Source: Gekko japonicus (Eukaryota). From it: a stretch of DNA of 64,000 nucleotides. The notes below the pieces were generated by a model. The model did not search any database, was not told the DNA's origin, and saw only the letters and a program-made list of their open reading frames with translations. The stretch covers positions 531,764 through 595,763 of the forward strand of contig NW_015169798.1 in the NCBI RefSeq assembly GCF_001447785.1. The letters run 5' to 3'. The position numbers were made by a program, and so were the translations under genes. Shown in pieces: positions 8,913-63,059 of this stretch; position 1 is the stretch's first letter, and each line of letters starts with the position of its first letter.

Positions 8913-8948
8913 ACTTGTACTCTTGCTGAAGCAACATTGAAAGACTTA

Positions 8949-10898: not shown

Positions 10899-10947
10899 CA
10901 ACCACATCAACTCAATTTGTATAGCCAGACAAGTGGCATGAGCCTAC

Positions 10948-16998: not shown

Positions 16999-17149
16999 TG
17001 CTGTTTTGCATGTGTATTTTCACTGCTACATTGATAAGATGGTGTTTATAGCTAAAGGTCCTGTCCAGGGTAATCCCAAGGCACTTAGATGTATGGTTGT
17101 GTGTAAATTGGATGCCATTAAGGTAGACAGTCAGTTCATGGTTGGCAGT

Positions 17150-17520
17150 TAAATCCCCTTCCCTTCCCTCTGGGGCTTGTGCTGCCTCTCTAGCATGACT
17201 CCCCAGTGAAGGAAAGGTATTTAAACTTTAAACACCTTCCCTTCACTGGGGAGTTGTGCCACAGAGGCGGCACGAACCTGAGAGGAAAGGGAAGGTATTT
17301 AAAGTTAAAATACCTCCCTGTTACTTGCTGAGTCATGCTGCAGTGTGGTGCAGCAAGTGAAATTCTCCATTATACCCTATGGGGATGGTTCTCGAATATT
17401 GACCGAAATACCAGTGAAATACCAATACTGGTATTCGGGTATATTCGGGAATATGGATATTCGGGTCCAAGAGACCCGAATCCGAAATAATTGTTTTTGT
17501 GGGTTTTTTGCACACCCCTA
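17150..17520. mobile_element. hAT-type non-autonomous element end with internal palindrome
   Basis: Terminus TTGCACACCCCTA, TATTCGG subterminal repeats, about 160-bp inverted repeat at 17150-17310. Confidence 0.6.
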
Positions 17521-17995: not shown

Positions 17996-18215
17996 AGGAT
18001 TGCCAGCTCCAGGTTTGGAAAATACCTGGACATTTTGTGGGTAGAGCCTGAGGAGGGAGGGTTTGGAGAGGGGAGGGACTTGACTTCAATGGAGAGTAAT
18101 GCCATAGATTCCACCTCCCAATGCAGCCATTTTCTCCAGGGGAACTATTTTCTGTTATCTGGATACCAATTGTAATCCCAGGAAATATCCAGCCCCCAAC
18201 TGGAGGTTGGTGACT
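17996..18215. mobile_element. hAT-type MITE (TAGGGTTGCCA family)
   Basis: Start TAGGATTGCCA and family-typical internal sequence. Confidence 0.75.
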
Positions 18216-18221
18216 CTGTCA

Positions 18222-23424: not shown

Positions 23425-23788
23425 TGTGTTTCATTATAAGATCCTGTTGCCACATCTATATATCTAATTCTCAGACTTTTCCCCCCATGTGCGGATACTT
23501 ATTTCCACCAACAGAGGGCTCACTCTCCCCCAACAGCGCTTTCAACAGACTCAAGGGCCTTTCTGGGTATGCAGAAAAATCTAAAAAGTTTTTTAAAAAC
23601 CCTCAGGGAAGGTTGAATTTTCCCCAAAACCTTTTGAAATGGCCTCAGCAGGGATCTACTCCAGGCATCAACGGTGAGAGATTAGAACGTTGGGGGGGGG
23701 AGAGAGAAGGGCCTCTAGCTGGTTCTGTCAGTAAAAGGGAGGGGGAAGGGCCTTTGTGGGAAGGAGGGAGCCTTGGGGCCAGGCCTGA

Positions 23789-24225
23789 CAAGGGTTGCCA
23801 GTGCCAGGCTGGGGAATTCCTAGAGGTTTGTGGTAGACTCTCAGGAGGGCTGGGTTTGGGGAAGGGAGAGGCCTCAGCTAGGTAAAATGCCACAGAGTCC
23901 ACCTTCCAAAGCAGCCATTTTCTCCATGGAGAGAGATCCCTGCTGTCTAGAGTTCACTCTTCAGGACCCACTTGGAAGTTGGCAACCTAAGGCCTGGCAG
24001 CAGTCTAGGGTTGCCAGGTCCCCCCTGGGCACCAGCAGGGGATGGGGGGAGGTTGCCAGATCCAGGCTGGGAAACTCCTTGAGATTCGAGGGTAGACCCT
24101 TGGGAGGACAGGGACCTCAGTGAGGTACAATGCCATACAGTCCACTCTCTAAATCTCTGTAGTCTGGAGATGAGCACTAATTCCAGGGGATCCCCAGATC
24201 CCACCAGGAAGCTGGCATCCCCAGG
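23789..24225. mobile_element. Two adjacent hAT MITEs (TAGGGTTGCCA family)
   Basis: First copy flanked by AGGCCTGA / AGGCCTGG; second starts TAGGGTTGCCA at 24006. Confidence 0.78.
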
Positions 24226-24244
24226 TGTCAGCTCTGCTGCCATA

Positions 24245-27200
24245 AGGGTTGGGACTCTTATTACGCCATAAGGACTTTTTAAACTCCAAGGGAATTTTCC
24301 CTATCTGTGTTTTTAGGGATTTGTTATTATCTCAACTGCTCCCCAAGCTCTCATCCTGCAAGAGCCCTTGCCATGACAAGCCTCCCTCTGATGTCTTGGA
24401 TACTACTCGGAAGGACAATATCAAATGTTGTTAACACTGTTGATAGCTCTAACAATTTAATAACATGGTCTGACTCCTTTAAAAGATCCCCTATTTTAGA
24501 CAACAGTCTCTTAGAGTCTGAAATCTTAGAATCATTCAAGACCTTACCCTTGTCTGAACAAAGATCAATTACAGATAGATTGAACTTAGTGAGATCTAGA
24601 CTTCTAGATAGTGCTGCAAGTCCTTTAGATACATGCAATCAAATTGATTCTTTAAGCCAGGGACCTGATGCAGAAATAGTCCCTACCAACCCTTTGGCTC
24701 CCCAAAACCCCAAAGAATGTTTTATAGAAGCTGTTGTGCATCATGCACCTTCTAGCCCTACTTTCATTTCTGTAAGTGAGGAAGTTGGGGAAGTTGAGGG
24801 ACTAGATTCTGCAGCCCCAATCCAGCTGCCTTCCTGTCAGCCTACTGACAACTTGAGAAATGGCTGTGTTAGATCAGCTTATTGAAATAGATTGACTACC
24901 TGAATGCTCCTCATCCCCATCTCTATCCCCACTTATAAGGTTTGTTTCTTGGAACAAAGCGGGTTGGAAGAACAAGGAAAAAGATTGTGAATTCATTAAA
25001 TTCCTCAGGACTTTTGATATAGTTCTCTTACAAGAAACTTGGGCTACTACTCAATTATACCTGGAGGGATATAATTCATATTCCCTCTTAGCTTTAAGGA
25101 CTAGTAATAGAGGCCGCCCCCAATTAGGACTAACTATTTTTGTTTCCTCTACTTTAAATTTAAAAATGTCTTATCTCCAAGAATGTTACCCTATCGCCCA
25201 AACCATTCTCCTTAATCATGGAAATGTTGCTCTAATTATTGTAAATATCCCGCCTTCTTCAGATAAGGTTGTTATGCTTGTTCATTGGAGCCGTTTGTCC
25301 ACTTTCTTAGAACATATAGAACATCAGTACCAATTGACTGAAACAATCATTGCGGGTGATTTTAATGCCAGAGTTGGCAATGATATGTCTCTTCTTAAAA
25401 ACCTGGACCTCGACCAGGACTTTGTTCTTCCATTACTTTCCCCTTTCCCAAGATATTCTAAGGATAATATCTGCAATTTAGCTGGTTTAAGATTAACACA
25501 AGTTTGTATACAGTTCCATAAGTTCTGGTTAAATGGCCTGACAAAACTTGGCAGCTCAGGTGAATTTACTTTTATTTCCTCATTGGGATGCAGTGTTATT
25601 GATTATATTTTGGTCTCCCCTTCCTTTAGGTCACTCATTTCTGACTTTGAGATAGGCACACTGATCATTAGCGATCATTTGCCTCTGATGCTTAGTTTCA
25701 ATCTTGATGTGGTGCTTAAATCAACCTCACATCAAGAAATAGACTGTATGCCCAGAGTTTCTTGATCCCCTGAGTTAAGCCAAAGAATCTTTCAATTACT
25801 TCAATCTAAGCCCAGTCTTGACCTTAGATTTGCATTAACAAATTCTTCTGATCATCTGGAGGCAATTCGTTATTATGAACATTTAATATCGTTTATCATA
25901 AACTCACTGCACCAGAAGTCTGAAGTGATGAATACCAACTATGTAAAGTATATGCCCAAACTTCAGTGGTTTGATAAAGAGTGCAGGAAATTAAAAATTT
26001 ACCTTCGTACAATTTATCGGAACTTTCGTAACTCCTTGGATACTCAGCTTCCTGTGGAGTACCGAATCCTTAAGCATCAGTTATTCCAACTTTGTTGTTG
26101 TTGTTCAGTCGCGCAGTCGAGTCTGACTCTTTGCAACCCCATGGACCAGATCACGCCAGGCCTTCCTGTCTTCCGCTGTCCTCTGAAGTTGGCTCAATTT
26201 CATGTTCGTTGCATCTATGACACTGTCTAACCATCTCATCCTTTGCTGTCCCCGTCTTCTTTGACCTTCAATCTTTCCCAGCAACTAATTCCAACTAATT
26301 AATATTAAAAGGCAGGTTTTTATTAACAAACAATGGGAAAAACTTCTTTTTGCCATTTCCACCTTTAATTGACCAGTTAAAGATAGGTAAGGCTCCAGGG
26401 CCAGATGGAATTATTCCAGAAATCCTGAAAGCTGACCCAGACTGGTGGGCCTCCCCCTTGGCCTCCCTTTTTACAATGATAAATAAAATGAATCAGATGC
26501 CTGTGGCCTGGTCCAATGCCATTATTGTTCCCATCTATAAGAAGGGACCACAACATAACCCTTCCAACTATAGGCCAATAAGTTTGCTTTCTGTAATAGG
26601 GAAATTATATGCCAAATTCTTACAACTAAAGCTCCTTAACTGGACCTCATCTTCTAAGATCCTTGGTCCTGAGCAAATAGGGTTCAGCCAGGGGGAAATC
26701 ACCTCTTGATCATTGTATTCTCCTCTCTCACTTGATAAATAAATATACAAAAAGAAGAAAGGCTAAGCTTTATGCTGCCTGTCTGGACTTTAAAGGGGCC
26801 TTAGACTCTGTTTTGAGGAACTTACTCTGGAGGAAACTTGATCATTTGCTTCCTGATAAGAGATTACTATTCCTTATCAGGAAATTGTATACGGCTACAT
26901 CTTGTCAGATTAGATGCCCTCCCTCTGGAAGACTTACACCAATGATTAATATAAATAAAGGGGTTAAGCAGGGCTGTATTTTGGCCCCTTCCCTTTTCAA
27001 TATTTTTAAAAATGACTTTGCCCCTTTTCTGTCTTCAGTTGATGGACACAACCCTAGACTTGGCTCTGCACATATATCTTTACTGCTGTACGTTGATGAT
27101 GCAGTCCTTTTGTCATCGACTCGTTTGGGGTTAAAGCATTTACTTGATTGCTGCTATGAATATTGTGCTGCAAACTACCTGGAGTTAAATTATGAGAAGT

Positions 27201-28381
27201 CCAAAGTAGTGGTCTTTTCCAACTCCTGGAAGTTTCATGACTGGAAAATCAATGGTCATTCCTTGGAACAGGTCAAGGTCTTTAAATATCTTGGTATTCA
27301 TTTTCAATATAACGCCTCTTGGGTATGTCACCGAAAAACAGCAATTAATACAGCCAAAGTAAATGCGGCAGCAATTTCCAAATTTTATTTTTCAGGAAGA
27401 GGTAACCAGTATATACCTGCTGCTTTAAAAGCCTTGAATGCTAAAATAGGGGCCCAGTTATTATATGGAGTGCCTATTTGGATCAATTCAACTGGAAATC
27501 TCATAGAACAGCCTCAGTCCTATTTCCTGAGGAAAATCTTTGGGGTGCCAATGTGTGCCCCCTATACAGCTTTATGCCTGGAATGTGGCCAGAACATGTT
27601 GATAACTAAAGCATGGCTAATTACAATTAAGTATTGGCTTCGCCTTCTTTTCAATCCGGACCCTTCTACACATATCAGCTTCTACTGGAATCCAATGACT
27701 CTAACTGGATTACCTATATAGAATCCAAAATTAAATCCCTGGATATCACCTTAGATTCCTTACTCCTTACTTCCGAATCTGAGGCTTTTTCAATTATAAG
27801 AGCCAATCTACTTTGTTCTGAGCTACATTCACTGTATAATGCTGCTAATAAAACCTGTTCACCCCTGTATTTTGGAATATCTCCTAAAGTCGGCCAACCT
27901 GCCTCTTACCTGTACCAACTTCACACCCCCAAACTCCGTAGAGCCCTCTCTTTGGCGAGATTCAATGTATTACCTTCGGCCTTATTAACTGGCCGCTTTC
28001 AGAGTGTGCCCTTTTCTGACAGATGTTGTCCATGCACAAATGATTATATCGAAACGGTTTCCCATGTCTTGTTGCAGTGCCCCTTCTACCATGCACTACG
28101 ACTGAAATTTCTAAATTTTATTTTGGCTCAATTAGAAGAATATCCTGATCGCTTAAAGATTCTTATTCTTCTTGATAATCCAAACCTTGAGATAACAGAA
28201 ATAGTTGCTAAATTTCTTTTTGGTGCCATTTCTATTCGCCCTTTATTTAATTGATGGGTATACTTATTTGGTAATTCCTTGTTTCTGTATTTTGCAAGTA
28301 TTATTCTATGCTGTGGTTGTTGTTGGTGGTGTGTTGTTGTTTTTTTATATGTGTTTGCAAGGGTTACATGCCAATAAAGGT
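24245..28381 (+). mobile_element. RTE-X clade LINE, near-complete ORF2 (decayed) plus upstream ORF remnant
   Basis: APE motifs VSWN, LQETW, GDFNAR, IDY, SDH; RT motifs GKAPGPDG, GVKQGC, YVDD; C-terminal CPC...ETVSHVLLQC; ends CCAATAAAGG; internal deletion near 26350. Confidence 0.85.
26092..26283 (-). mobile_element. BovB 3' fragment nested in RTE-X
   Basis: (CAA)n tail, BovB 3' sequence, TSD ATTCCAACT. Confidence 0.92.
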
Positions 28382-29153
28382 AACTAGACTGGGAACATCC
28401 AATAAATCCTTGGGTTGTGGCATGGCTGGCAGAGCCACTGGGACCACGGGTAGCAGAACCGGGGGGAGGTGGCAGGGGCGCTGGCAGCAGTGGTGGAATC
28501 AGGGGAGAAGAGGCAGTGGCGGAGGAGGAGGCGGAGGCGGCCGACGGACTGGCGGTCCAAGGGGGAATTACCGGGGGGGCATTAGGTGGCCAGTTGGGTC
28601 TTCACTACCTGGGCCACCATCCCAGGTTAGATCTGGAGCAGTTGCCCCATGTCCCGCATTATTTTGCGGCAGTCCAGTTCCAGGCCACCCAGCCTCCCAT
28701 CTACGTTCCTTCCCGGGCTTAACAAAGATCTCGATGGGAACGTGATGGGTATGCTTGGGGTCACCCCGAAGCTCCCCGAGCTCAGACAGGGGTCATACAC
28801 ACTGTCCCAACTCTGACTCCCCAGCAACGACCAAGTAGTCTGCGTGGAGCCCCCCAAATGGCAGCCCCAATCCCGATCCTTGCGGCGGTAGGTTACTCCC
28901 TTCCCCAAATATACTGGGATAAACAACACCGCTGGCCGAGGGGTGGCTCCTCCATCAGTAGACACTCGTCACTGGCACTCCCATACCCGTAGTCATCGGG
29001 GGGAGGACGGGTACCGTCGTTGTGGGTACCGTCGTGGGCACCATAGTGGGTACTGTGGTAGGTACCGTGGTAGGCACCCCAGTACCACCGGAACCACTCA
29101 TTTCGGTTAGGAGAGACTTGGGCCGATGGACAAAAAGGGATTCCTGACATTTC
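28382..29153 (-). mobile_element. LTR retrotransposon (probably Gypsy) internal 5' region, decayed gag N-terminus
   Basis: Directly downstream of the minus-strand LTR; MSGSGGTGVPTTVPTT... then a Pro-rich tract; CpG-rich. Confidence 0.55.
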
Positions 29154-29592: not shown

Positions 29593-29718
29593 GGTCCCCA
29601 CTGTGGAGGAAAACTGTAACTGTCCTAGGTAGAGGTTGTGGAGGAGGGGGGTAGAGACAGAAAGCTAAAGACAGATAAAGGCAGATAAAGTTAGGTTGGC
29701 TGCTGGGTGGGAAAGAAA

Positions 29719-30083
29719 TAGGGTTGCCAACTCCAGGTTAGGAAATTCTTGGACATTTGAGGGGTGGAGCCTGGGGAGGGTGGGGTTTGAGGAGGGGAGG
29801 AACTTCAGACTGGTATAATGCCATAGACTCCACCCTCCAAACCAGCCATTTCCTCAATGAGAACTACCATTGCCAGCCTCCAGGTGAGTGCTGGAGATTA
29901 CCCAGAATTACAACTGTTGTCCAGGTGACAGAGATCAGTTCCCCTGGATAAAATGACTGCTTTGGAGGGTTGAGTCTATGGCATTATACCCTGCTGAGGC
30001 TGCTTCCCTCCCCAAGCCTCACTATCCCAAGGCTCCACCCCCAAATCTCCAGGAATTTCCCAACCTGGAGCTAGCAGCCCTAA
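29719..30083. mobile_element. hAT MITE (TAGGGTTGCCA family), head-to-head form
   Basis: TAGGGTTGCCA...TAGCAGCCCTA with two inverted half-units. Confidence 0.78.
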
Positions 30084-30820
30084 GGTGAATTGATCTCTGT
30101 AGCTGGGGGAACTGTTGTGATTCCCAGAGTGCTGCCACTGCTGCTGTGAGGGTAGAGGAAGCAGGTGGTGCTGTGTGGGGTGGGGTGGGGGAGGATGGGG
30201 GCATAAAGAGAGAGTGATGGGGGCAGAAAGAGTGATGAGGCAGAAAAACAAAGAGAATGGTGACAGGTCAGAAAGAGAGAGGAAGTAACATGTATGGAGG
30301 TGAGATAGAGAGTAAGAAAAGGGGGGACAGAAGGGACAAAGAGTGTGAGACAGGTAGGGGGAGAGGGGAGGAAGCAAAGGTGTGAGGAATGGGATGACCA
30401 TTTCGCAAGTTTCTTGCGGGTCTCCACTTGTATTTGTATAATACAAAATATTTAAAGCTGTCAAAATTGTGCCCTTTTTCAATACAGTGATATATAAGAA
30501 ATGCTTCCATAATTTTAGTTTGAACTCTACTCTGATGTTGCAAAATTCTAGTTCTTACAGGGTGAGTAGCGTTTCCAATATACATCAAGCCACAATAGCA
30601 GACTAGAGCATACACCACATTCTTTCTCCCACAAGTGGAGAAAAACCACAAATAAATCAGTGAACCCCCTGTTTGGGTGTGAATTCATTAATTTCCAATG
30701 CTTGAGGGCAGATCAAACATCTATCACATCTATGATGTGCCCGTTAATTCCTCCTCTGCTCTACCTGTGGAATTCATTTCAGAATGCACCAATAGATCTT
30801 TGATGTTCCTAGTTCTTCTG

Positions 30821-31944
30821 AAGCCTATATAGGGTAATTCTTCACACCCGGGAACATCACTTATTAAGGGCCAATGTCGAATTAGAATTCTGTGTATTTT
30901 ATTAGATGGTGGTGTATAATCTAAACTACATGTAATCCCCTCCTACCCAGCGGTTCGAAAGCAACTTAATTGCAAGTAGATAAATGGGTACCCACCCTTA
31001 GTGGGGTGGGGGGCACCCTGCCTGGCGTGGTGGTTGCGACGGCGGCGGCAGCGAGGCATCGGTTCCGGTGCGGATGATGTGGCGTGGCAATGCGGCAGCG
31101 ATGGCGAGCGGGCGTGGCCGGAGGAGCGATCCCTGGCGTCCGAAGAGACGAAGACATCAGAGTGGCTGTCGCCAAGAAAGGGCGCGCGAGAACGCCGAGC
31201 GCTGGCCCAGCGAAGCCAGAAGGGACGTTGCTGAGGCCGGAAGAAGGCGGAGCCGCATGCTGCAAGAGAGACAGTTCCACCGAGTGCCATGAAGAGCACC
31301 CTGCCAGAGACCGCCGACAAGAACCCGAAGGAACAACACCAACCACCACCATAGGGGTGCCGGGTAGGTTGCCCCACCCCACAAGCCTATATAGGGTAAT
31401 TCTTCACACCCGGGAACATCACTTATTAAGGGCCAATGTCGAATTAGAATTCTGTGTATTTTATTAGATGGTGGTGTATAATCTAAACTACATGTAATCC
31501 CCTCCTACCCAGCGGTTCGAAAGCAACTTAATTGCAAGTAGATAAATGGGTACCCACCCTTAGTGGGGTGGGGGGCACCCTGCCTGGCGTGGTGGTTGCG
31601 ACGGCGGCGGCAGCGAGGCATCGGTTCCGGTGCGGATGATGTGGCGTGGCAATGCGGCAGCGATGGCGAGCGGGCGTGGCCGGAGGAGCGATCCCTGGCG
31701 TCCGAAGAGACGAAGACATCAGAGTGGCTGTCGCCAAGAAAGGGCGCGCGAGAACGCCGAGCGCTGGCCCAGCGAAGCCAGAAGGGACGTTGCTGAGGCC
31801 GGAAGAAGGCGGAGCCGCATGCTGCAAGAGAGACAGTTCCACCGAGTGCCATGAAGAGCACCCTGCCAGAGACCGCCGACAAGAACCCGAAGGAACAACA
31901 CCAACCACCACCATAGGGGTGCCGGGTAGGTTGCCCCACCCCAC
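30821..31944. repeat. Tandem duplication, 2 x 562 bp
   Basis: 30821-31382 and 31383-31944 appear identical; duplicated ORF translations match at a 562-bp offset. Confidence 0.97.
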
Positions 31945-32033
31945 ACAGAACATGTGGCCCTAGTTAGGAGATAGAAATGGTGATTAGCACCGACTTGTAA
32001 GCCGCTCAGAGACCCCTAGATAGGGGTTCGAGC
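31505..32033 (+). mobile_element. Composite SINE copy A (Sauria core, GC-rich insert, L2 tail), head missing; partial duplicate at 30943-31382
   Basis: Sauria core CCCAGCGGTTCGAAAGCA...AATTGCAAGTAGATAAATGGGTACC; GAAATGGTGATTAGCACCG; L2 tail TGTAAGCCGCTCAGAG. Confidence 0.8.
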
Positions 32034-32799
32034 TCTTTTACTCTGAGCAAGAGGCTCTTTAGGTCCTCTTCACTTTCTGCCGTTAGAGTGGTATCGTCTG
32101 CATATCTGAGGTTGTTGATCTTTTCCCCAGCAATCTTAATTCCCTCTTGTGATTCATCTAGGCCAGCATTTCGCATGATATACACTGCATATATATTAAA
32201 TAAGCAAGGCGACAATATACATCCTTGTCGTACTCCTTTTCCTATGCTAAACCAATCAGTTGTTCCATATCCGGTTCTAACTGTCGCTTCTTGGCCCTTA
32301 TACAGGTTTCTCAAGAGACATGTGAGGTGGTCTGGTACTCCCATCTCTTTAAGGACCTGCCATAGTTTGTTGTGATCCACACAGTCAAAAGCTTTAGCAT
32401 AGTCAATGAAGCAGAAGTAGATGTTTTTCTGGTACTCTCTTGCTTTCTCCATAATCCAGCGAATGTTGGCAATTTGATCTCTCGTTCCTCTACCTCTTCG
32501 AAACCCAGCTTGTACTTCTGGCAGTTCTCGATCCATGTACTGTTGAAGCCTAGCTTGCAGGATCTTGAGAATGACCTTGCTAGCGTGTGATATGAGTGCA
32601 ATTGTGCGATAGTTTGAACATTCCTTGGCATTGCCCTTCTTTGGGATTGGAATGTATACTGACCTTTTCCAATCCTGTGGCCACTGTTGCGTTTTCCAAT
32701 TTTGCTGGCAAATTGCGTGCAGCACTTTAACAGCATCATCTTCTAAGACTTTGAATAGCTCAGCTGGAATACCATCACCTCCACTAGCTTTGTTGTTGG
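32032..32799 (-). mobile_element. BovB internal RT fragment (both ends missing)
   Basis: ORF WPQDWKRSVYIPIPKKG...GVRQGCILSP...LRYADD. Confidence 0.95.
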
Positions 32800-34060: not shown

Positions 34061-35467
34061 TAGATATTTTTCTGGTACTCTCTTGCTTTTTCCATAATCC
34101 AGCGAATGTTGGCAATTTGATCTCTAGTTCCTCTACCTCTTCGAAACCCAGCTTGTACTTCTGGAAGTTCTCTATCCACGTACTGTTGAAGCCTAGCTTG
34201 TAGGATCTTGAGCATGACCTTGCTAGCGTGTGATATGAGTGCAATTGTGCGATAGTTTGAACATTCCTTGGCATTGCCCTTCTTTGGGATTGGAATGTAT
34301 ACTGACCTTTTCCATTCCTGTGGCCACTGTTGCGTTTTCCAAATTTGCTGGCAAATGGAGTGCAGCACTTTAACTTCTGCTTCATTGACTATGCAAAAGC
34401 CTTTGACTGTGTGGATCACAACAAACTATGGCAGGTCCTTAAAGAGATGGGAGTACCAGACCACCTCACATGTCTCTTGAGAAACCTGTATAAGGGCCAA
34501 GAAGCGACAGTTAGAACCGGATATGGAACAACTGATTGGTTCAGCATAGGAAAAGGAGTACGACAAGGATGTATATTGTCACCTTGCTTATTTAATATAT
34601 ATGCAGAGTACATCATGCGAAATGCTGGCCTGGATGAATCACAAGCGGGAATTAAGATTGCTGGGGAAAAGATCAACAACCTCAGATATGCAGATGATAC
34701 CACTCTAATGGCTGAAAGTGAAGAGGACCTAAAGAGCCTCTTGCTCAGTGTAAAAGAGGAGAGGACAAAAGTGGGCTTGAAGCTCAACATCAAAAAAACT
34801 AAGATCATGGCATCCGGCCCCATCACTCCTTGGCGAATAGAAGGGGAAGTCGTGGAAGTAGTGACAGACTTCACGTTCCTGGGATCCCAGATCACCGCAG
34901 ACTGTGACTGCAGCCATAAAATTAAAAGACGCCTGCTCCTTGGGAGGAAAGCGATGGCGAACCTAAACAGCATGATAAAAAGTAGAGACATCACCCTGCC
35001 AACAAAAGTCCGCATGGTCAAAGCAATGGTATTCCCAGTAGTCATGTATGGCTGCGAGAGTTGGACTATAAGGAAGGCCGAGCGCCGAAGAATAGATTCT
35101 TTTGAACTATGGTGCTGGAGAAGACTCTTGAGAGTCCCTTGGACTGCAAAAAGATCAAATCAGTCAATCCTAAAAGAAATCAACCCTGACTGTTCCCTGG
35201 AAGGCCAGATAATGAAACTGAAGCTCAAATACTTTGGCCACCAAATGAGAAGGGAGCACTCCCTGGAGAAAACCCTGATGCTGGGAAAGATTGAAGGTCA
35301 AAGAAGACGGGGACGGCAAAGGATGAGATGGTTAGACAGTGTCATCGATGCAACGAACATGAAATTGAGCCAACTTCAGAGGACGGCGGAAGACAGGAGG
35401 GCCTGGCGGGAGATGATCCATGGGGTCGCGAAGAGTCGGACTCGACTGTGCGACTGAACAACAACAA
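34061..35467 (+). mobile_element. BovB with 5' inversion (34061-34373 inverted)
   Basis: Uninterrupted RT and C-terminal ORF to 35457; (CAA)n tail; TSD AACCATATGTT at 34050-34060 and 35468-35478. Confidence 0.95.
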
Positions 35468-36712
35468 AACCATATGTTAATGATTTTACATTATATAAAC
35501 CCTGAGTGGCTACAACAGATGATAACTCCTTTCTTTCTTGACTGGATCATTTATTCTATCAGCTGTGTTCAGTGACACTTCTCAGCCATGCACTGAATGC
35601 TGCTTCTTGACCCACCATACTATCATTGCTTAGTACTATTCCTATTGCTGATGCTAACTGGATTTTTAACTTGGGTTTACAAGCAAGATTCAAGTCCAGC
35701 AGCACCTCACCTGGGTTTCAATAGCTCTTAAAAGGAAGGGGGAAATGGAATTTCTGGGCTCCTGTTATTTGCCATCATTACTTTACTGTTTTAGTTTTTG
35801 TGCTGGAAGCTTTTACAAGGTAATCGACTGGAAGTTGTAGGGTAGAAACATTTGAATGAATAGGTGGGAGGGAGGAATAAAAGTTCTGTTTTGTTGCAAC
35901 AAGCAAGAGAACCTTGTAAGATGAATACGAAGGGAGCTCTCAAGCCTGGGAGTTCCAGGATCCAATGCTAGGGAGTGGAAGCAATGACATTACTGTATTT
36001 CACCCAAAGCACCCAGGTGCCTAAGGTCAATGTTGTGTTGCTTTGTGCTAGGAATGGAAGAAATAATTACTACAGTGAAGCTGGTTCAGACTGTCAAGCC
36101 AATATGCTGCAGCCTCCTGAACAAGCTGCAAGTGACAGAGAAGCTCTGATGTAAGCTCTCCTAAGAAGGAATTAGGTTATTTGAATCACATAATCTTAAA
36201 GGCATGCCCTGCTGTGGGCCTGAAATATTTCTCCCTGTTCATTGTATAACAATTGCAACAGAAGGCAAAAGTTCCATGCAAGAAGTCTCCTATATGAATG
36301 ACAATACAGAGAATACTCCTTCTACTTGAACATCCAGTCCAGTCCTTTAATGCTCATCCCTAAACCAGGAACTTTCCATATGGTTCTATCTCCCTTCTCT
36401 GAACACTACATGTTAATTTATCAACCTTATCATGGACCAGGCTTTACATAACTATTATTTTACCATGTGGTGGGGGTGGGAACAATAATAATTTTAGCTG
36501 GATCAGTTAATTTTATACTAATTCTATATGTTCCTTTACCCAGGTTTTTCAAAGACCTTAGGATTCAGCAGTAATATTATTTCCCTGTTATATATTTACA
36601 TACTTCTAATAAATCTTAATTGTTAAGTAGAACCATGAAATGTTGAAAAACTACATTGCTCCCTGCAAGGTGACATGCATCAGAATACTTCTCAAGTGGA
36701 AAGCATCTAGTA

Positions 36713-37150: not shown

Positions 37151-37242
37151 ACATGAGAATGCATCCTGACACAGACTGAGGGCTATGTGTTTGTCTTCCC
37201 AGGAGAAATAACCACAACTCCTATGAGGCAGTGCAAAAACAG

Positions 37243-37390
37243 AGAGACAGCAATGTATAGTGGTCAGTATCAGCCTACTATCTGGGAAGTCTAGGTTCAA
37301 AACCCCCAGTCTACAAAGGAAATGTGCTGGGTGAACTTGGTCTGGACACACACTCTCAGCCTAATCCACCTCACTGGCTTGTTGTTATTC
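37243..37390 (+). mobile_element. CORE/MIR-like SINE
   Basis: A and B box head and CTGGGTGAACTTGG...CTCTCAGCCTAA core. Confidence 0.7.
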
Positions 37391-39509: not shown

Positions 39510-39722
39510 GGATGGCTAGCCTCCAGGTGGGGCCTGAAGGTCTCCTGGATTGAGATCTCCAGGCAACAGAGATCAGTTCCCCTGGAGAAAATGGCTGCTT
39601 TGGCAGGTGGACTCTATGGCATTATACCTTTACTGAGGTCTCACTCGTTCCCAGACTCCTCCATCACCAGGCTCCCTCCCCCAAATCTTCTGGTATTTCC
39701 CTACCCAGAGTGGACAACCCTA
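39510..39722. mobile_element. hAT MITE (TAGGGTTGCCA family)
   Basis: Family internal sequence; ends GGACAACCCTA. Confidence 0.72.
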
Positions 39723-46470: not shown

Positions 46471-46747
46471 CCCTTGTTAATATTATTAACAGAAGTGGGA
46501 GGGGGAGTTAATATTTTCCCATAATCTATTAAAGTAGTAAAAGGATGCTCCCACACACACACATGGTCATATAATGTTAATTTGAGTTAGTGGTTACACA
46601 TGTGGAACAGAAGTTAGAATTCCCCCTTAATTAGTTTTAATTACATTTAAACAATGTTCAGGCAGGGGGTTGTTGTTGTATTGGTGGGACAACTAACATC
46701 CTTTGTAAATGCTACTTTGCTACTGTAGACTTAAGCTTCAGGTTACA

Positions 46748-46944
46748 TGGGGTTGCCAGCCTCCAGGTGGGGCCTGGAGATCTTCTGCTTTTACAACTGA
46801 TCTCCAGCTGACAGAGATCAGCTCCCTGGAGAAAATGGCTGCTTTGAAGGGTGGACTCTATGGCATTGTACCATGCTGAAGCCCCTCCCCACCCTCTTCC
46901 CCCAAAGTCTCCAGGTATTTTCCAACCCAGACCTGGCAACCCTA
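46748..46944. mobile_element. hAT MITE (TAGGGTTGCCA family)
   Basis: TGGGGTTGCCA...TGGCAACCCTA with perfect 8-bp TSD AGGTTACA. Confidence 0.9.
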
Positions 46945-47244: not shown

Positions 47245-50200
47245 GGGTGGAATCTTTGTCTAGGGGCCAATGGTGGCTCTTGGCAGCCCTGCCAAAAGAG
47301 TACTCTGGACTGTGAGAGATGAGATCACTGGTTGGTCAGACCATGCGTGGACCGAATGCATGATTTCGCAGGCAGACCAAACAAAATCACAGAGACAGTG
47401 GGCTTTAAACACGTTTTTATTGGAAAATCCAGAACTTAGGAAAGGAATAGAACAAGACATTAAGTTATACTTCCAAAAAAAAAATGAAACAAATGAGGTT
47501 TCCCCGACCACATGTTGGGATGCTCTGAAGCCCGTATTGCGGGGTACACTCATTTCTAAGGCTTCTTTCCTAAAAAGACAAAGGCAACAGGCAGAAACAG
47601 CCCTTCTGGAAAAAAATTAATCTTTAGTGCAAAAACACAAAGAAACTGGCTCTAAGCAGGTTCTAAAACAGCTGACACTAGAAAGAAAAGCCCTCAGCAT
47701 GCTGGAAATATCTAAAATTAAAAAACACCTAATTTTTACAAAGCAAAAGTATTGGGTAAAGTGGCCTAGGTCACTGAATCTTTTAGCACACAAGGTTAAA
47801 GAACTTAAAACGTCCAAGCAAATTAAGGCCTTAAAAACTACAAAAGGAGACGTAGTCACAAAAAACACAGATATATTAGAGGTTTTGGAGGAATACTATA
47901 AAGGGCTATATAAATCAACACCTGTGAGTACTGATATACTCTGTGAGACTATGGTTGGGTTCCCTATACATACCAAATTAGAAGATACTCATAGGCTGGT
48001 CATGGAAGAACCTGTAACAGAGAAAGAAATTTAAGACACCATAAAATTACTGAAGAACAAAAAAGCCCCAGGACCGGATGGCTTCCCATCTGAGTTTTAC
48101 AAAGTATTTGCGACACAGCTCTCTGAACCACTAATGAAAACATTCAATCACGTTTTATACACAGGTACTATCCCCACATCTTGGAAACAGGCGACCACAG
48201 TAGTCATACCTAAGAAGGGAGGTGATTTGACAAGTCCTAAGTCATACAGACCTATTTTGTTATTGAACCAAGACATGAAAATATTCACATAAATTTTGGC
48301 CAAGAGAATGAACACCTTTATTTCACAATATATACATACCGACCAGGTAGGCTTTATACCTCATAGAGACCTTGCGGATAACACCATGAAAACGTTAAAT
48401 CTCCTCAAGCACAGCACTGAACTTAAAAAAACCATGGCCCTTCTCTCTTTAGACATAGAGAAGGCCTTTGATATGGTGGAGTTCTTGTATCTCTTTAAGG
48501 TACTCAAAAACATGTGTTTTGGCCCCAAATTAATACAAGCTATAGAAGATCTGTACATTAATCCAACCACCAATATTAAGTCCAATGCGTCACTATCAGC
48601 CAGGATAAACCTTAAAAGAGGCACAAGACAAGGGTGCCCGTTGTCACCATTATTGTTCGCCACTAGCACACGCCATTAGGATGAACCATCGAATTGAAGC
48701 TATCAAAATCAGGAATACGGAATATAAAATTTCAGTGTTTGGAGACGATATGTTGATTTATGTTACTAATCCTTTGCAGTCAATACTTACGTTACTGCGC
48801 ATGTTAACATCATTTGGAGAGGTATCAGGGTTGCGCATTAATCATTCCCAATCAGAAATACTCCCAATTCATATTCCTGAAATGGTTCAATCCCTTCTCA
48901 AACCGCAGTTTCAATTTAGTTGGGTCTCTGATTGCTTAACCTATTTGGGAATAAAAATCCCATTAGACTTGTCTAAACTAATGCATCACAACCACAACAC
49001 AGTGTACAAGGAAATTCACAATACTTTCTCCAAATGGGGAAAACTAAACCTAACCTGGCTTGACAAATTTAATTTGATAAAATTGTTTCTTTTACCAAAG
49101 TTCTTATTTCTGTTTAGAACCATCCCCATTGCTATCCCAATGTCTTTTAAAAAATGGCAAGATTCTCTATTGAAATTTTTGTGGGGGGGATGCAAAGCTA
49201 CGATCGGATTCCACATTCTGAGGAAACCTCGATCCCAAGGGGGATTCAGATTTCCTGACTTAACAACATACCACCCTAGGCTCAAGAAAGAGCGGTGGCG
49301 CAGACGGTAGAGAGTCTGCATTAACAACTATGAACAGCCATTGTGGCTGTTCGAGAACCCACCGCGGCCGGGGTGAGCACCTGGTCCCAGTCCCAGCTTC
49401 TGCCCACCCAGCGGGCCGAAAGCAGTTAACAACTACGCGAGTAGGCTAATGGGTACCTACCCTTAGAAGGGTAGGGGCACCCTCCCCTGATGAGGAGTGT
49501 GGAGATGGCACAGATGACGGTAGAATCATCGGCGGCAATGGTGGTGGCGGAGCATCTGGCAGCGGAGGCGAAGGGCGATGCAGCGGCTGCAGCACCGACA
49601 GAGCGATCCCTGGCGGCGAGCAGACCATTGTGCGACCAACGGCGACGGAGGCGAGAGACTAGGAGGCGCCTGATGATGCGCAACGCTGGGCGAGGCGGAG
49701 CCTGACTGGATGGAGCCTGAGCCAGGAAACAAGCGTGAAAGTCGGGCGCCTGCGCAGTCCTGCCAATCAACAGTCGCCGGGAGGAATGCCAAGAGAGATC
49801 GCCGGGAAGAAACAGCCACGCCGGAGTAACAACGAGGCCCTCCAACTAGGGTGCCGGTAGGCTTCCCCACCCCTATCATGTGTGGCCCAAGTTAGGGACG
49901 AAGGGTTACTAGAACCATTACAGATGTAAACCGCCCAGAGACCCCTAGGGGTTAGGGCGGTATAGCAAGTGGAAAGTTAAAATTAAAAAAAATTTAAAAA
50001 TTTTTTAAAAATAAAGCAACTCTCCTGGCAAATATCATTAAAATATAACGCTCAACATCTCAGCCTGACTGGATCAAATTATGCTCTGATCTTATCCATC
50101 CACACTTGATAGGCCACATGCTTTGGGATAAGAAAATTAATCCTGCAGCTACTAAATCACTTAATGAGTTCCTGACGCCTATGGTCAACTTATGGAAAAC

Positions 50201-51200
50201 AGAAAATTTTACTTACTTGAGGTGTCGAGGTACTCCACTTCTACAAATCAAACATGGTTTGCGGAGATGTGCGATCCCACCCTTCTCAAAATGTGGAAAG
50301 CAGCAGGGCTTTCAGGCTTTTGTGACATTGCGTCTAAAAAGGGTCTGTTTCAGAAAAACGAAATTGAGAAAGCTTTAGGGAAAACAATACCATGGTTTCT
50401 ATATCTGAAATTGCAACATGCTACAAGTCAAATCAAACTTGCATCCATACTGTCTCAACCACACACAGAATTAGAAATGATATTGAAATTATACGACTCA
50501 CATAATACAGGCTTAATCTCAGCCACTTACCAGCTCTTACTAAAAGACAGAAATCCAAAACCGATGTCGTATCAATTATCATGGCAAAAAGACTGCACAG
50601 CCACCCTGGATGATGATGTTTGGTCCATGATTTGGAACCCAGATAGGAGATTCCCCTGCTCAATACCACTGGAGCTGCAGCAGTTCAAAATATTAACGAG
50701 GTGGTATCTCTCCCCTCAAAGAATCTCTCACATGAGCTCGAGGCACTCACCATTATGCTGGAAGGAATGTCAGCAGATTGGCACCTTCGCACACTGCTGG
50801 TGGCAGTGTGAGAAGATCCAGAGCTTTTGGAAAGAGGTACAGAGGTTAGTTAAACACATTATCAACATAGACATGCCAATATGCCCAGAAAGGCTTTTTC
50901 TAGACTACTGGCCACCAAATATAGAAAATCATGTACACAAAAATACCTTGGATGTGATGGTCTATGCTGCCAGGACCTCCATTGCTACATGTTGGAAGGA
51001 CACAAAGCCGCCCGGAACACTGATTTGGTACAAGAAGTCATGGGATCAATTCTTGATGGAGTGTGTTATCTGCAAACTGAACAACGCCGCTCTTCGGTCG
51101 ATCTCTACTAAATTCATGGAAAAGTGTGTTGAGAGATGAAACTGATATTTGCTTGATGGATTTATATTTGCTGCCAGATACTACATGGACTGTACACACA
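47245..51200 (+). mobile_element. L1 LINE ORF2 (endonuclease end, RT, Cys-rich domain), decayed; 3' boundary uncertain
   Basis: WSDHA, KAPGPDG, DIEKAFD, GTRQGCPLSP, FGDD, CWKEC...HCWWQC. Confidence 0.92.
49275..50012 (+). mobile_element. Composite SINE copy B, apparently full length, inserted in L1 ORF2
   Basis: A box GTGGCGCAGACGG, B box GTTCGAGAACC, Sauria core, GC-rich insert, L2 tail TGTAAACCGCCCAGAG...GGGCGGTATA, A-rich end. Confidence 0.85.
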
Positions 51201-52110
51201 TACACCTTAGGCTCAAGAAAGCTGTTCAAATCACCTGTTGTGACAAGATACACATAGATGGTGACTTGCTTTAAGCCTTACATGAGTTTTCTAATACACA
51301 GCCACTAGCCTGAGGGGAAGAAGCACATCGCCATTGTTGCCAGCCAAACAACAAATCAGGAGAAGTAATCCCCCATTGATGAACTGTTGAAAGACACGTA
51401 TACACATCTCTGCTTAACATCTGAAAGAGCATTTCCTGTTAGTTGAGTCTTTGATTACCTGGGAAAGGCAAGTTTCATCTACACATCAAGAAGATTCCTT
51501 GACGCCAAGCTTTCACACTCACCTAGATGCTTTCTCTTGAGTTAGAGTCTAGAGTTTCAATATTGGCCAAACCCTTTAGGTACCCACCCCTCACTACACG
51601 CACCAATGAGATTAGTGAAGGGACAGACTTACAGGTAGGTGGATCCAGAGGATGGCTCAGTTGCCACCCACCCAAAGATTCACCTATAAAAGCTAAGGAC
51701 CATGTGCTTGGTCTTTGCTAGCCGCATTTTCCCCCACCACCCCTATCTGCTTTCTAATCCTCTCATGCTCAGCTTACTATACCCAAATCCTTTGTGTTTG
51801 CTTGATCTTTTGGTCTGCAGTCAAAAGGTCCACACTTGCTGGCTGGTTCTAGCAGTCTGATTTAGAAACATCCCTAGGTTCTATTTTCCTGACCCTTTAT
51901 TCTTCATTGCAACAGACAAGGCTTCAGGACAGATAAGTATAAACCATTACCTACCCACCTGCTAAGTAAAAGGGACTATTTTTGATTCTGTATTTCTGAG
52001 GAACTTGCTTGAATGTGTGTATGTGTCAGCATTGTGTGTATGTGATTTATATTCTTAAATAAAAGACAGATTATTTTGAATCTACCAGCCTCGACTCTTT
52101 CACTGGGAAA

Positions 52111-57519: not shown

Positions 57520-60250
57520 AAAGAAGAAGATTGTCAGGGAATTTGGGAGGGTGGCATAATAAGCTTTTTGATCCTGATTTTCTTAAAGCCTTAAGTCACT
57601 TTGATATTTTGTTTTTGCAGGAGACTTGGGCTCAGAACCCCACTTCCCTAACCTTCCAAAGACACACCCAAAGGGGAGGGGCCGTGGAGGATTGGCTATA
57701 TTAGTTACTGTGGACCTAAAAGCAGAAATTCAAGTTTTGGAAACTATATGTTCAAATTACATTCAGACACTATTAATCAAGGGTCTGTATACAGATCCTC
57801 TCCTATGCATTAATGTTTATCTATCACCAAAGAGTTCCAAAGCCAATGACAAAGGAAAGCTGTGGGATCAACTTTTCAAAACACCAGAAGACTTAGTGTA
57901 CCAGTAAAGGTAAAGGTTCCCTTGCTCGAAAGCCAGTCGAGTCCGACTTTAGGGTTGCAGTGCTCATCTTCGTTTCAAAGCCGAAGAGCCAGCACTGTCT
58001 GAAGACGTTTCCGTGGTCATGTGGCCGGCATGACTAAACACCAAGGCGCGCGGAACGCTGTTACCTTCCCACTGAAGTGGTACCTATATATCTACTTGAA
58101 ATTTCTTGCTTTCGAACTGCTAGGTTGGCAGGAGCTGGAACTAGAGACGGGAGCTCACTCCGTCATGCGGCAACTCGGGTCTCGAACTGCTTAACTACTG
58201 ACCTTCCACAGCCTGCAGTTCAGCGTCTTATCCCCATTCTAATATGATCCTTGGGGGTGATTTTAATGCTAGGATTGGGTCAAAAAATGTTGAGGCTTGT
58301 GCAGATGTTTATACTGAAATGGCTGAACAAGCCTCTCTTTTAGATTGCCACTCAGTAGACCCTGTAATTAGTAAATCAGGCTTAAAATTCTTAGATATAC
58401 TCTCCGCGTCCAACCTTTATGCAAGCTTTACTTCAATCAGATGCAAAAATTATCCAACAATATGAAGAGATTGTCCAGACTATTAAGCCACTCCTTATTA
58501 AGGATAGACCCTTTAAAACCCAGCCCATTAATAAGTGGTATGATTCAGAATGCAGAAATTAAAAAATTAACTAAATAAATGAGATAAACTAGGCAAAGCA
58601 AGGAGGCACACCAGCTTCAGCAATTAAATACTCTTAGATCACAATATAAGAGCATACTTACAAAGAAAAAAAATGATCATGCCAAACACCTATGGAATGA
58701 ATTGGCCCAAGCTACCTCCGAAAGGAAAGAAATCTGGTTTGGGGAGTTAGTTACACCCAATCTGGGAAAACCACCACAAATTTTGGATGCGCAGATAAGT
58801 AGAAATGTCTGGTTTGAGCACTTCACTAAAGTTTATGAAGCCACCACTCTCACATTGAAGCCAGTTGGAATAGAGCAAAGAGCTGCTCTTACAGAAATGG
58901 AACTGTTACCAGAATGGCATTCAGTGACGGAGCCTGAAGTTGAAACTTTTATTTCAACTTTAGCCTCTGTAAAATCTCCTGGGGAGGATTTAATACCTCC
59001 TGATTTAATAAAAACCTGTCCTAGGTGGTGGATCCCGATATTGGTCAAATTGTTTAATCAGATAAATAACTCGGGTCTATTTCCAACAGGCTGGAAAACC
59101 AGTATAGTAGTTCCTATTTATAAAAAGGGAGCTAGGACAAACCCACAACACTGTCATCCCATAGGTCTCCTTGACACAGCTTCTAAACTTTATGGGAAAT
59201 ACCTCTTGCAAAAGTTAGAAGAGTGGATCCTTGATAATAACATCATATATCCTCAGCAAGCAGGATTCAGAAAAGGACAGGGAACAATAAACCATTGTTA
59301 TACTTTATATCATTTGGCTAACTCAGCAATGTCTGGCCCCACCAAAGCCTTGTATGCGGTATTTGTAGACTTAGCAACAGGCTTTGACTTGATCAATAGG
59401 GATCGGCTTTGGGATAAACTGGAGAAGACAGACATAGACAAGAGACTGTTGTTTTTAATTCATGAGTTATACTCAGATACATCTACAAGCATCAGAGTAG
59501 GCATCTCAGGCTCTTTGACTAGTGAAATATCCACAAGAAAAGGGGTAAAGCAAGGCTGTGTGTTAGCCCCTGCACTTTTCAATTTATACATAAATGACAT
59601 CATACCCAAGCTAAATGGCCCCAAATTTGTTTCACCTACGATAGGCCAGCAGAAAACATCAATACTGCTTTATGCAGATGATATGGTTTTATTCTCCCTA
59701 ACTAGGAATGGTTTAAAGAGACTTCTGGACAAACTAGGAGAATATTGTGATGAAGAGAATCTTACCATCAACTGCTCAAAAACTAAAGTAGTGGTCTTTT
59801 AAATAAGACCTAAAAGACATTCTTGGAACATACAAGGTATCCCTATAGAACAATGCAAGATCTATAAATATTTGAGATTGATTTTTAGTGAAACGCTGAA
59901 CTGGAATGCGCACGTAGCCTCTATTAAAGTATCAGCAACTAAGACAACAGGAGTAATACTGAGATTCTACCGAACCAAGGGGGGCTGTCTTGTAGATCCA
60001 GCCCTCAAGCTTTTTAACAGTAAAGTTATCTCCCATATATTGTGTAGAGTAGAACTTTGGAACTTGATACCCCCTCAATCAGGGCTTGAGCCCATTTACC
60101 TGTCCTGAAATTACGGAAGAAATACCATTTGTTATCAAGTGAATAATTTAGCAAACTTAGTTATTGTTCCTTATTAAGTAAGGATAAAATCCGCTCTGTA
60201 TTTTTTAATAACATCATTTCTCAATACACTGTACCAGATGACTTACTGAG
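57520..60250 (+). mobile_element. RTE-X clade LINE ORF2, decayed
   Basis: LQETW, GRGRGGL, GGDFNARIG, GVKQGCVLAP, LLYADD. Confidence 0.85.
57905..58230 (-). mobile_element. Sauria SINE nested in RTE-X
   Basis: Close match to 7866-8215, lacking the first ~25 nt. Confidence 0.93.
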
Positions 60251-60443: not shown

Positions 60444-62648
60444 CAATGTTGCCTCCGCAGGACCTTGTATCTGCCAGCTTAGTTGAGTCACCCATGACAT
60501 GCACAAAATGAGAGGTACAAGACTATTATTAAGAAACATCATGAACTATTGGGTAGGGCAGCAGCTCCCATTTTTGGCCCAGAGTTTGAAAGGAGAAAGC
60601 CAGTGAATGGTTCCAGTGAATAACAGTTGGGATTGTTCAGCAATTCTCTCAATCTCATATCCTGATGCTAAAAGCTTGTACATTCTTATGTGTCACTGAA
60701 TTGGTCCTAATAAAAGGTATTACATAGTTTGTGTTTGTGGTTTTGGGGTTTAACCTTCAGACCAACACAACTGTAAACAATTTTTTACTATCAGTAAGGG
60801 ATGCTAATTTTAGTATGATCCTTGAAGGTGTATAATCTCAGGTGTACAATCTCAGTACATGAGATTGAGATTTCCCCCAAACCCTTTTTACTGGTAGTAA
60901 GCCAGAGAAAACATGGCCCAGATTCTCCTATGGTAGATTTAGCAGCTACTCTTGATTCGAGAATGGATATAAAATAAAAAGATTCTAATACGGTTGTCTT
61001 TTTGTCTGGTGTTTGAAAAATCATCCATATGCAAACTTCCTAAGAGCAAAGGAGCAAAACAGGTACATTTTACTATGGTGGTATGTGGACATAGGACATG
61101 ATATTGGCAGTTACCTGTTTATTCTACCATCACCTTTTTCTGTGTTAGCTTATCTGGAAAAGATTGAATTCTGTTAGTATTGAGTCTGATCTGTTAGAGG
61201 GGATTATAGTTGAGTAGTTACACATCTTGGTTTTAAAAGTAACTCGCAGTCTTCTAAATCTGTGTTAGTTCTTTGGCTTAGGAAATCTAAGACTGAGACA
61301 AACTATAACTGAAGTAGGCTGTCTGCTTTGCTCTGTCTCTTTCCTTCTTTTGTTCCAAGCATCTTGCATGACTATCTGAACAAAAGTTTGTTTCATTGTA
61401 CTTTGTACAGTACTTTTTTGTACTTTGTAGAGTTTCAGCTAGGAAACATGAAGGGAGGCAGCTTACTACCTGACCAAGAACTAGACTGTTGGCACAGTAC
61501 TGAGAAGGGGAAGTTGCTTCATGATTTACAAAAGAATTGACCTGTGAAAATTCAGGTTATCTTCAAACTAAAAGGTCATGTGCACAGAACACTGTACATG
61601 CAACACAAATACATTGAAGTGTACTTCCACTGAGATTCCCTGCTGCATTGACATACATCTGTCTCAAGCAGAACAATTCTGGACCTGGTAAATCTATGTA
61701 CTGAGAGTGGATTATTTTCCATCACATCTCTGAGACCCTGGAAAGATCAACACCTAACTATTTAAATAAGTTTGATGATTGCTGGGATTATATTGACAGA
61801 TGTACTGCAATTATGATTTTCCAGACACTACTAAACCTTAGAGTTTTAATGTTTGATTGGTGTTACCCAAATAAAATGTGAGTAGTTCTGAGCGAAGCTT
61901 ACTACCACAAGTTGAAAGTGTTAGAAAAAAAAAAGATGAGACTTTTTCTTACTTTCTTATTCTTACAATCCTTCTGTAAAGCAGGTAATATTTCTCCTCA
62001 TTTGACAGATGGGGGAAGAGGCGAGAGTAAGTTGGTCCAAGCAACCAAGAGAATCCACGGAAAGGTAAAATTTGAGTTCAGATCACTCACAACCAGAGAA
62101 GAGTTGATTGATAAAATGCTGGGCAAAATAACTGCAAATGCATTGGACTGGTCTTGTGCTTTATTTGTATCCACTACTGAGTCAGTAATTGGAATCAGAG
62201 ACAGTAAATACATTCTCAAACAAGAGCATGCCTGTTTTCAAGATAATCATAGATATATCTAAGCCCACCCCACTGCCTGTTCCCAGCACGCATCATTCCA
62301 TCTGCTAGAAACACTTACTGATGTTTTATGGTTTCAAAACCTGATTATATACATGCATGTGTGCATATTATGCAAGCTAAGGCTAGTCTTTTCAGAACAA
62401 AGTTCATTATAAAGCATTTGAGAGCTAATGTCTGTAGAACAGCATCTGAAGAACTGCCTCCTGCCACTAGGTGAATTGGGGGGAGCATCAATAAAAATAA
62501 ATAGCAAGATGAAGGCAAAGTATTTATTTACAGAGCGGAAGATATTGTCCTGTATGTACATCATTTACTTACAGTAATTTTGAATTATTTTTTTGCTGGA
62601 GATGCACCAAAGGTGACTATGGCCCCGTTACCGCCACAATCTCCAAAC

Positions 62649-62865
62649 AGGGTTGCCAACTCCAGGTTGGGAAGCTCCTGGAGATTTGGGGATGGATCCT
62701 AAGGAGAGCAGGGTCTGGGGAGGGGAGGGATCTTAGCAGGCTATCATGCCACAGAGTCCACCCTCCAAAGCAGCCATTTGCTCCAGAGGGCCTGATCTCT
62801 GTCATCTGGAGATCAGTTGTAATTCTGGGAGACCTCCAGACCCCACCTGGAGGTTAGCAACCCCA
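62649..62865. mobile_element. hAT MITE (TAGGGTTGCCA family)
   Basis: Termini CAGGGTTGCCA...TAGCAACCCCA. Confidence 0.8.
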
Positions 62866-63059
62866 TCCCATAATTGTTTGTGAAGATGAAACCAGCTTGT
62901 CTGCTGGCTCTTTATACTTGGTGTTAAATTAATAATTAGCTGTGGACAACTTTGCTTAGTTAAATGAGATGTCGTTCACTATAAAAATAACACCCTGTAT
63001 ATAGACAGGCCTTGCAGACAAGAATGAGAAACACTTCACCAGATTTACATTATTCAAAC

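Follow-up and report, generated by a model that had tools for sequence, protein, structure and literature searches.

The window analysed here, 64,000 nt of Gekko japonicus contig NW_015169798.1, contains a decayed L1-type ORF2 (47300-51140, plus strand, with RVT_1 matches; we give it the L1 label from its motifs) that is interrupted by a composite repeat element, copy B, at 49290-50012. The ORF2 frame continues across the empty site, and the element is bounded by a 4-nt target-site duplication, AAAG, at 49287-49290 and 50013-50016 (plus strand). The 12 nt immediately 5' of the duplication (49275-49286, plus strand) lie outside the element; the 5' junction (49257-49290) recurs 1.9 kb downstream at 51188-51221 (30/35 identical, E 0.004), and these 12 nt may be templated filler from there, introduced during repair of the insertion. 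Directly past the L1, 51500-52060 is an LTR-like segment, judged by eye.

All segments of copy B read on the plus strand. A Sauria-like tRNA-type head (49291-49402) comes first, in which a box search found a Pol III A box (49296-49307) and B box (49349-49358), each with at most one mismatch and spaced as in the Sauria SINE copy at 7866; the boxes that had been claimed for this copy are thus both present, with the proviso that its B box has one base more than the Sauria box. The core (49403-49483) follows, its 3' end forming the 5' arm of a stem that brackets the insert. The insert itself (49484-49847, 364 nt) is GC/CpG-rich and T-poor, and is succeeded by a 77-nt post-insert segment (49848-49924), consisting of the 3' arm of the bracketing stem and a spacer, then by an L2-type 3' stem-loop of 42 nt (49925-49966) and a degenerate A-rich tail (49967-50012). 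The earliest point at which Pol III could terminate is the six-T run at 50001-50006 in this tail. Without the tail, copy B measures ~680 nt.

A second copy, A (31500-32033, plus strand), is headless: it starts within the core (31504-31581) and continues through a 334-nt insert (31582-31915), the post-insert segment (31916-31995) and the stem-loop (31996-32033). Its tail ends at 32033, where a minus-strand BovB-type (RTE) ORF fragment (32033-32731) abuts and truncates it, and for this reason the closing GGGCGGTATA of the tail is present in copy B only. The BovB label of the local LINE is our assumption, made from the 3' end it has in common with Sauria. Missed in the earlier account of copy A was a tandem duplication, 30821-31945, in which 30821-31383 (plus strand) equals 31383-31945 at 563/563 positions; the exact duplicate comprises 117 nt of flank plus the core and insert of copy A and amounts to a third, partial copy at ~30938-31383. 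The duplication is either a recent event or an assembly artefact. An HMM built from A and B found, below E 0.5 in the window, only A, B, the tandem duplicate and two Sauria copies.

These two copies are canonical Sauria (Squam1) SINEs, for which Piskurek 2006 is said to be the reference, and both lie on the minus strand: 7866-8215, with ACCTTT repeats at its end, and 57905-58235, slightly 5'-short and 92% identical to the first. Sauria SINEs are ~350-360 nt long (PMC13295347, PMC10058329) and are characterized by a Bov-B-shared 3' end and ACCTTT repeats (PMC13295347). Sequence like the Sauria core also occurs, unlabelled, in Podarcis flanks (supplement of PMC13295347, in part).

We compared segments by local alignment score against 300 dinucleotide shuffles. 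Between A and B, the core (79 vs 18.5±3.5 shuffled), the insert (82 vs 40.8±6.5) and the post-insert segment plus tail (89 vs 19.8) all scored higher than any shuffle (0/300 each). The core of B matched the Sauria copy at 7866 (43 vs 15.8 shuffled, 0/300); the match of the head was weaker (29 vs 18.3 shuffled, 1/300, 57% of columns identical), and head and core together reached E 5.8e-15 in nhmmer. For copy A, 76% of columns in the core are identical to the local Sauria. The sequence-only reading had described two clearly diverged composite copies sharing a core alignable to the Sauria SINEs at 7866 and 57905, which these scores bear out; the Sauria head that it claimed for the composite was recovered in B and is missing from A. 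With head identity of only 57%, the split from Sauria must be old.

Global identity between A and B differs by segment, being 0.73 per column in the core, 0.58 in the insert, 0.66 in the post-insert segment and 0.79 in the tail. The insert value exceeds that of 200 shuffles (0.52±0.015, maximum 0.57), so that the inserts are homologous yet far more diverged than their flanks. They share an exact 15-mer, at 49601-49615 in B, where the longest in 100 shuffles was 12. Judged from these alignments, the A and B inserts have one common origin.

Copies elsewhere in the genome were sought in sequencing runs. Words of copy B occur in 16 of the 24 runs listed (one species label, 6 studies), only 1 of which contains half or more; 4 of the 24 were aligned to 49050-50250 at 80% likeness, with the tail repeat skipped in the alignment. 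Two DNA runs, from one study and with the same species label, yielded 1246 and 1250 contig records, the majority with 80-95% similarity to it. In thousands, the contig depth sums to 0.2-1.4 over the L1 flanks, 54-154 over 49337-49500, 1.5-9 over the insert, 12-16 over the post-insert segment and 291-336 in the tail bin. Summed depth is not copy number, and ratios to the median depth of 8 listed contigs per run give an order of magnitude only: ~1400-2300 for head plus core, ~30-190 for the B-like insert, ~200-300 for the post-insert segment and ~5000-6000 for the tail, the core and tail values possibly including other Sauria, L2 or Squam3 copies.

Among the 24 pieces listed (2585 further pieces exist), one joins core to insert (49424-49541) and two join insert to tail (49785-49963 and 49785-49967); 4 of the 6 joints listed connect core, shared motif or post-insert segment inside one contig. 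Three listed pieces, from two runs, begin at 49290/49291, one of them at 49290 after 87 unlike letters, and we accordingly place the 5' end of the element there and not at 49275, where it had been put before. In two further listed pieces, head/core or post-insert/tail runs into 154 and 229 letters unlike those of B, as would be the case for other insert types. None of the records listed covers the element from end to end, so that only B shows all three parts in order within a single molecule; no empty-site joint was among the joints listed. The loose-end rows at 49357 (24 reads, 11 contigs) suggest that many copies do not have the extra B-box base of B. Copies A and B thus belong to a real multi-copy family with a fixed 5' end and bridging joints, which supports the existence of further copies of the composite. 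One might object that there is no family, just two local accidents that stacked unrelated fragments, in a window that is dense in nested repeats and in which copy A has been both duplicated and truncated. We regard this as scarcely credible, given that A and B are colinear across four segments and that both the joints and the 5' end recur in contigs from other loci. Pattern scans for core and tail gave 0 matches in viral contigs and metagenome contigs.

Depth drops ~50-fold at the start of the B insert, which supports distinct subfamilies. The earlier proposal was that these are distinct and young, and the second half of it was overstated. Of the 10 majority variants listed within the B insert (176 further rows exist), 6 restore a CpG, indicating that copy B decayed from a CpG-richer subfamily; having lost CpGs relative to its own subfamily, copy B is not very young. 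The head, moreover, is 57% identical to Sauria against 92% between the two Sauria copies.

The inserts of A and B have a GC content of 0.63-0.66 and a CpG o/e of 0.97-1.05, against 0.30 for the window. The GC- and CpG-rich composition reported earlier for the middle is thereby upheld, at measured lengths of 334 and 364 nt instead of 336-366. Retained CpG is nevertheless no special mark of the composite, since the Sauria copies, with o/e of 0.72 and 0.87, are nearly as CpG-rich. Internal repeats of the insert are scattered and only 8-10 nt long. In this the element differs from SVA, the hominoid composite non-autonomous retroposon that is Pol II-made and L1-mobilised: both are composites with a GC-rich variable middle, but that of SVA is an array of tandem repeats.

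The insert had also been interpreted as captured cargo, and neither the window nor Rfam offered a source; because the A and B inserts share an origin, divergence after a single event fits as well. The Rfam scan of the window gave 5 matches with E<=1, none on the element, and focused scans gave E 1.2-7.8, with scores well short of the gathering thresholds; these scans thus point to no ncRNA, rRNA or ribozyme of a known kind as the source. ARAGORN found 0 tRNA genes. Several other origins were tried and set aside. No reading frame is conserved between the A and B inserts, and the best tblastx piece joins differing frames; matches to the Sauria 3' half were not above shuffles (38/300 and 22/300); and, the A/B motif aside, no match elsewhere in the window fell below E 0.78. 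Taken on its own, the insert is no more stably folded than its shuffles (24/60 and 8/60 as low).

The CpG-island-like composition of the insert does raise the question of whether the element could be a Pol II-made non-autonomous L2 derivative, with a CpG-island L2 5' UTR or a host promoter as its insert and the Sauria head as a passenger. At ~680 nt, copy B exceeds in length all 175 SINE families of SINEBase 2013, which span 75-662 nt (PMC3531059), and the window has no L2 5' end for comparison. Such an origin seems quite improbable to us, because the copies start at the Pol III head, the depth of the head is about that of the core and far above that of the insert, and many copies apparently have a B box without the extra base. 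Furthermore, the makers of ORF-less bipartite LINEs named in the available part of Kojima 2018 are only RTE, Ingi, Vingi and R2 (PMC5786205). As for the core being an RTE 5' UTR domain, four short motifs found no match in the part of the supplement of that paper at hand.

The tail links the family to L2-type LINEs instead of BovB. Two L2-type LINE 3' ends on the plus strand served as references, 9947-10022, which has the stem-loop and TAAA repeats, and 16926-17000. The B tail matched each of them better than any shuffle (0/300 each), as did the A tail one L2-type LINE end (0/300); compared with the BovB 3' end, shuffles scored as high in 263/300 cases for A and 299/300 for B, that is, there is no match. 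A block of 15-17 nt from the local BovB 3' end does recur in the Sauria copies (2/300 and 1/300 shuffles as high). Replacement of the BovB end by an L2-type tail, as first suggested from the letters, is hence found in both copies, with the exception of the closing GGGCGGTATA, which the cut tail of A lacks. Both reference ends come after ORF2 C-terminal frames like the one behind the RT at 1-1450, and the sequence upstream of the 9947 end is 80% like 1272-1393, located after the RT domain. The RT frame itself (581-1117) matches Pfam RVT_1 (E 3.7e-16), and of the 120 homologues listed, at 45-65% identity, nearly all are from Podarcis, Anolis, Varanus and other squamates. The homologue list gives no clade, and L2 is the name we presume for this LINE on the basis of RT motifs.

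The tail, with identities of 70-71% to the L2 ends over ~45 nt and 64% to a Squam3-like SINE, may have come from L2 or from Squam3, a SINE with an L2 tail. Squam3-like CORE SINEs (a label we assume) occur at 4316-4590 (minus strand, with an L2-type tail and CCT repeats), 12583-12743 and 37236-37379. The presence of the same tail type at 4316-4590 allows a Sauria and Squam3 chimera, still L2-mobilised, that took its 3' part from Squam3, and the post-insert segment does bear a weak likeness to the 3' half of the Squam3-like head (7-11/300 simple shuffles as high, 7 to 179/1000 dinucleotide shuffles in three schemes). We consider such a chimera unlikely: this signal is unstable between scoring schemes, the B tail is nearer to the L2 ends than to the Squam3-like tail, and the sequence ahead of the tail in A agrees at 15/19 nt with the part of the Sauria 3' body that directly precedes the block shared with BovB, a scheme-dependent match (8/2000 shuffles as high in one scoring scheme, 38-361/2000 in others) that is absent in B. 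Derivation of the post-insert segment from the L2 3' UTR was also tried and was not above shuffles.

Target-site duplications in the window are 8-11 nt for BovB (5/5), 4 nt for copy B and 0-5 nt for the L2-type and Squam3-like copies; the family is represented here by B as its single case, the ends of A being damaged. The contrast between BovB and copy B is weakened by the Sauria copies, whose duplications are 6 nt and none and which are thus without a long duplication either. Given the A-rich end tract of B, its A-rich duplication and the presence of L1 in the genome, mobilisation by L1 via the A-rich tail, with the L2-like stem-loop a relic, must also be weighed. A 4-nt duplication is, however, short by L1 standards, and no other segment is conserved as well between A and B as the stem-loop (79% of columns), which is what continued recognition would predict; we hold L1 mobilisation to be very unlikely. 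Separately, the BovB copy at 34061-35470 has an inverted 5' piece (34061-34374) within its 11-nt target duplication, like twin priming.

RNA folding gave the same tail stem-loop in B and in both LINE ends. The stem-loop of A, whose letters are not those of BovB, differs by one C-G to U-A change (pair probability 0.99); in the predicted structure this compensatory change, one pair in one copy, is only suggestive. Automatic alignments, which placed A out of register, showed no significant covariation in the tail stem-loop. The segments flanking the insert pair strongly in A (-68.6 kcal/mol vs -41.4±4.9, 0/1000 shuffles) and weakly in B (72/1000), with crossed A/B pairs at 4/1000 and 3/1000; in both copies they pair better than any sliding insert window (47 and 55 windows), these segments having been selected after the fold was seen. 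The whole elements fold better than shuffles (z -3.2 with 20 shuffles, -2.5 with 100).

The sense strand is free of TTT over 681 nt of B (49290-49970) and 534 nt of A. In part this follows from a T content of only 14%; the absence in both copies nonetheless suits putative Pol III transcription. From one raw RNA run, apparently unstranded, we aligned ~3% of the reads, obtaining 623 reads. Both mate directions were equal, there were no start or end piles, and RNA depth tracked DNA depth at a ratio not above that of the L1 flank. Passive inclusion in longer transcripts would account for this pattern, which is compatible with either the presence or the absence of Pol III products. RNA loose ends ahead of the tail (159 and 120 reads) resemble, by eye, the A sequence ahead of its tail and not the AT-rich L2 3' UTR, with an agreement of only 0.48-0.53.

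We read the family as a SINE derived from Sauria that has an L2-type tail and a hypervariable GC-rich insert, and think it probable that it works through L2. An ancestor from the Sauria (Squam1) lineage would have retained its tRNA-type head and core and acquired a long GC-rich segment inside a stem; an L2-clade LINE would have supplied a ~42-nt stem-loop in place of its BovB-shared 3' end, with a template switch in reverse transcription as the probable route. Pol III, starting from the internal A and B boxes, would produce full-length copies by reading through the T-poor insert and stopping at a T run in or past the tail. L2 ORF2p would then bind the stem-loop and insert the copy by target-primed reverse transcription; after L2 insertion, target duplications would be short or absent and many copies would be truncated at the 5' end. 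Divergence of the insert, which had a single origin, would have far outpaced that of its flanks and led to several subfamilies.

A bolder version goes beyond this. It proposes that an exceptionally long, as yet undescribed SINE lineage crossed from RTE (BovB) to L2 while its BovB-dependent relative remained in the genome, and that the stem-bracketed middle is a cassette, a ~350-nt CpG-rich payload that turns over fast between subfamilies, for example under host silencing pressure, with its flanks held by base pairing. We offer it tentatively and think it rather doubtful as a whole; if true, it would make the family a natural test of SINE partner change and of the source of SINE bodies.

Several known systems resemble the family in part. 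Sauria/Squam1 shares with copy B the tRNA-type head containing A and B boxes, a homologous core and a squamate host; it differs in its BovB-shared 3' block, its ACCTTT repeats and its ~350 nt, against the ~680 nt, insert and L2-type stem-loop of B. Against the Squam3-like copy of the window, the head of B scored no better than shuffles (287/300 as high). The head of SINE2-1_ACar may be Sauria-like. Squam3 (PMC7983390) and Anolis SINE 2 (PMC3747384) are squamate SINEs with an L2-derived 3' end as in B, the latter being compared by its description; Squam3 is 218-271 nt long, with a Ther1-type head, a CORE remnant and rare target duplications (PMC7983390). Recorded squamate SINE/LINE pairs are Sauria/Bov-B, Anolis SINE 2/LINE 2 and SINE2-1_Acar/Vingi-2 (PMC3747384). 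SINE2-1_ACar and SINE2-1B_ACar are, like B, squamate tRNA-headed SINEs with a partner other than BovB (Vingi-2), but the middle and 3' parts of SINE2-1_ACar are Vingi-derived (PMC3747384, PMC5786205).

The principle of SINE tail exchange is already known, having been documented by Kojima 2018 (PMC5786205), and exchange has been attributed to template switching (PMC4824008, PMC4758252). In ERE4B, IdioSINE2, MetaSINEs and Ther-2/Mar-1, as in B, the head and body were kept while the LINE-derived 3' end was exchanged, giving a new partner (PMC5786205, PMC4824008, PMC3531059, PMC2000970), which for Mar1 is RTE (PMC2000970). Replacement of the RT-recognised sequence can revive a SINE (PMC7983390). 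The available parts of the four tail-exchange papers (PMC5786205, PMC4824008, PMC3531059, PMC2000970) contain neither a Sauria-derived case nor a long hypervariable GC-rich insert, and such a composite is likewise absent from those of PMC10702118, PMC10058329, PMC10670947, PMC3899998 and PMC13700897. We also looked at SINE-1_Pmo as a precedent and discarded it, since '5S-Sauria' in Repbase denotes a 5S-type head and not the Sauria SINE. We found no description of a Sauria-derived L2-tailed SINE in literature searches that covered few subscription papers; there is a sizeable chance, short of even, that Dfam or Repbase already contains it under an unnamed or species-level entry. Under the SINEBase rule, a SINE counts as a new family when its LINE-derived region differs or when it has a long insertion (PMC3531059).

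Most cases of tail exchange have been deduced from families so old that their parents have since disappeared. This one genome contains the Sauria SINE with its BovB tail and BovB itself as well as L2-type LINEs and the re-tailed derivative, with two copies of each within 64 kb, so that the switch can be dated and tested directly. The fast-diverging insert is relevant to the open question of where SINE bodies originate. Repeat annotation would probably report such copies as separate fragments of Sauria, of L2 and of unclassified sequence.

The window has further features. An older dispersed repeat with inverted ends, possibly a MITE, recurs in both orientations at 60-85% identity (8741-8915, 10930-11158, 18055-18221, 23785-24226, 29701-30123, 39543-39722, 46747-46944 and 62630-62868). 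Long hairpins at 9042-9139, 14129-14248 and 17178-17274 have weak matches to miRNA models, far below Rfam gathering scores, and are probably small inverted-repeat elements. Long open frames of 150-400 codons lie on the plus strand at 23283-28745 and 58588-60108.
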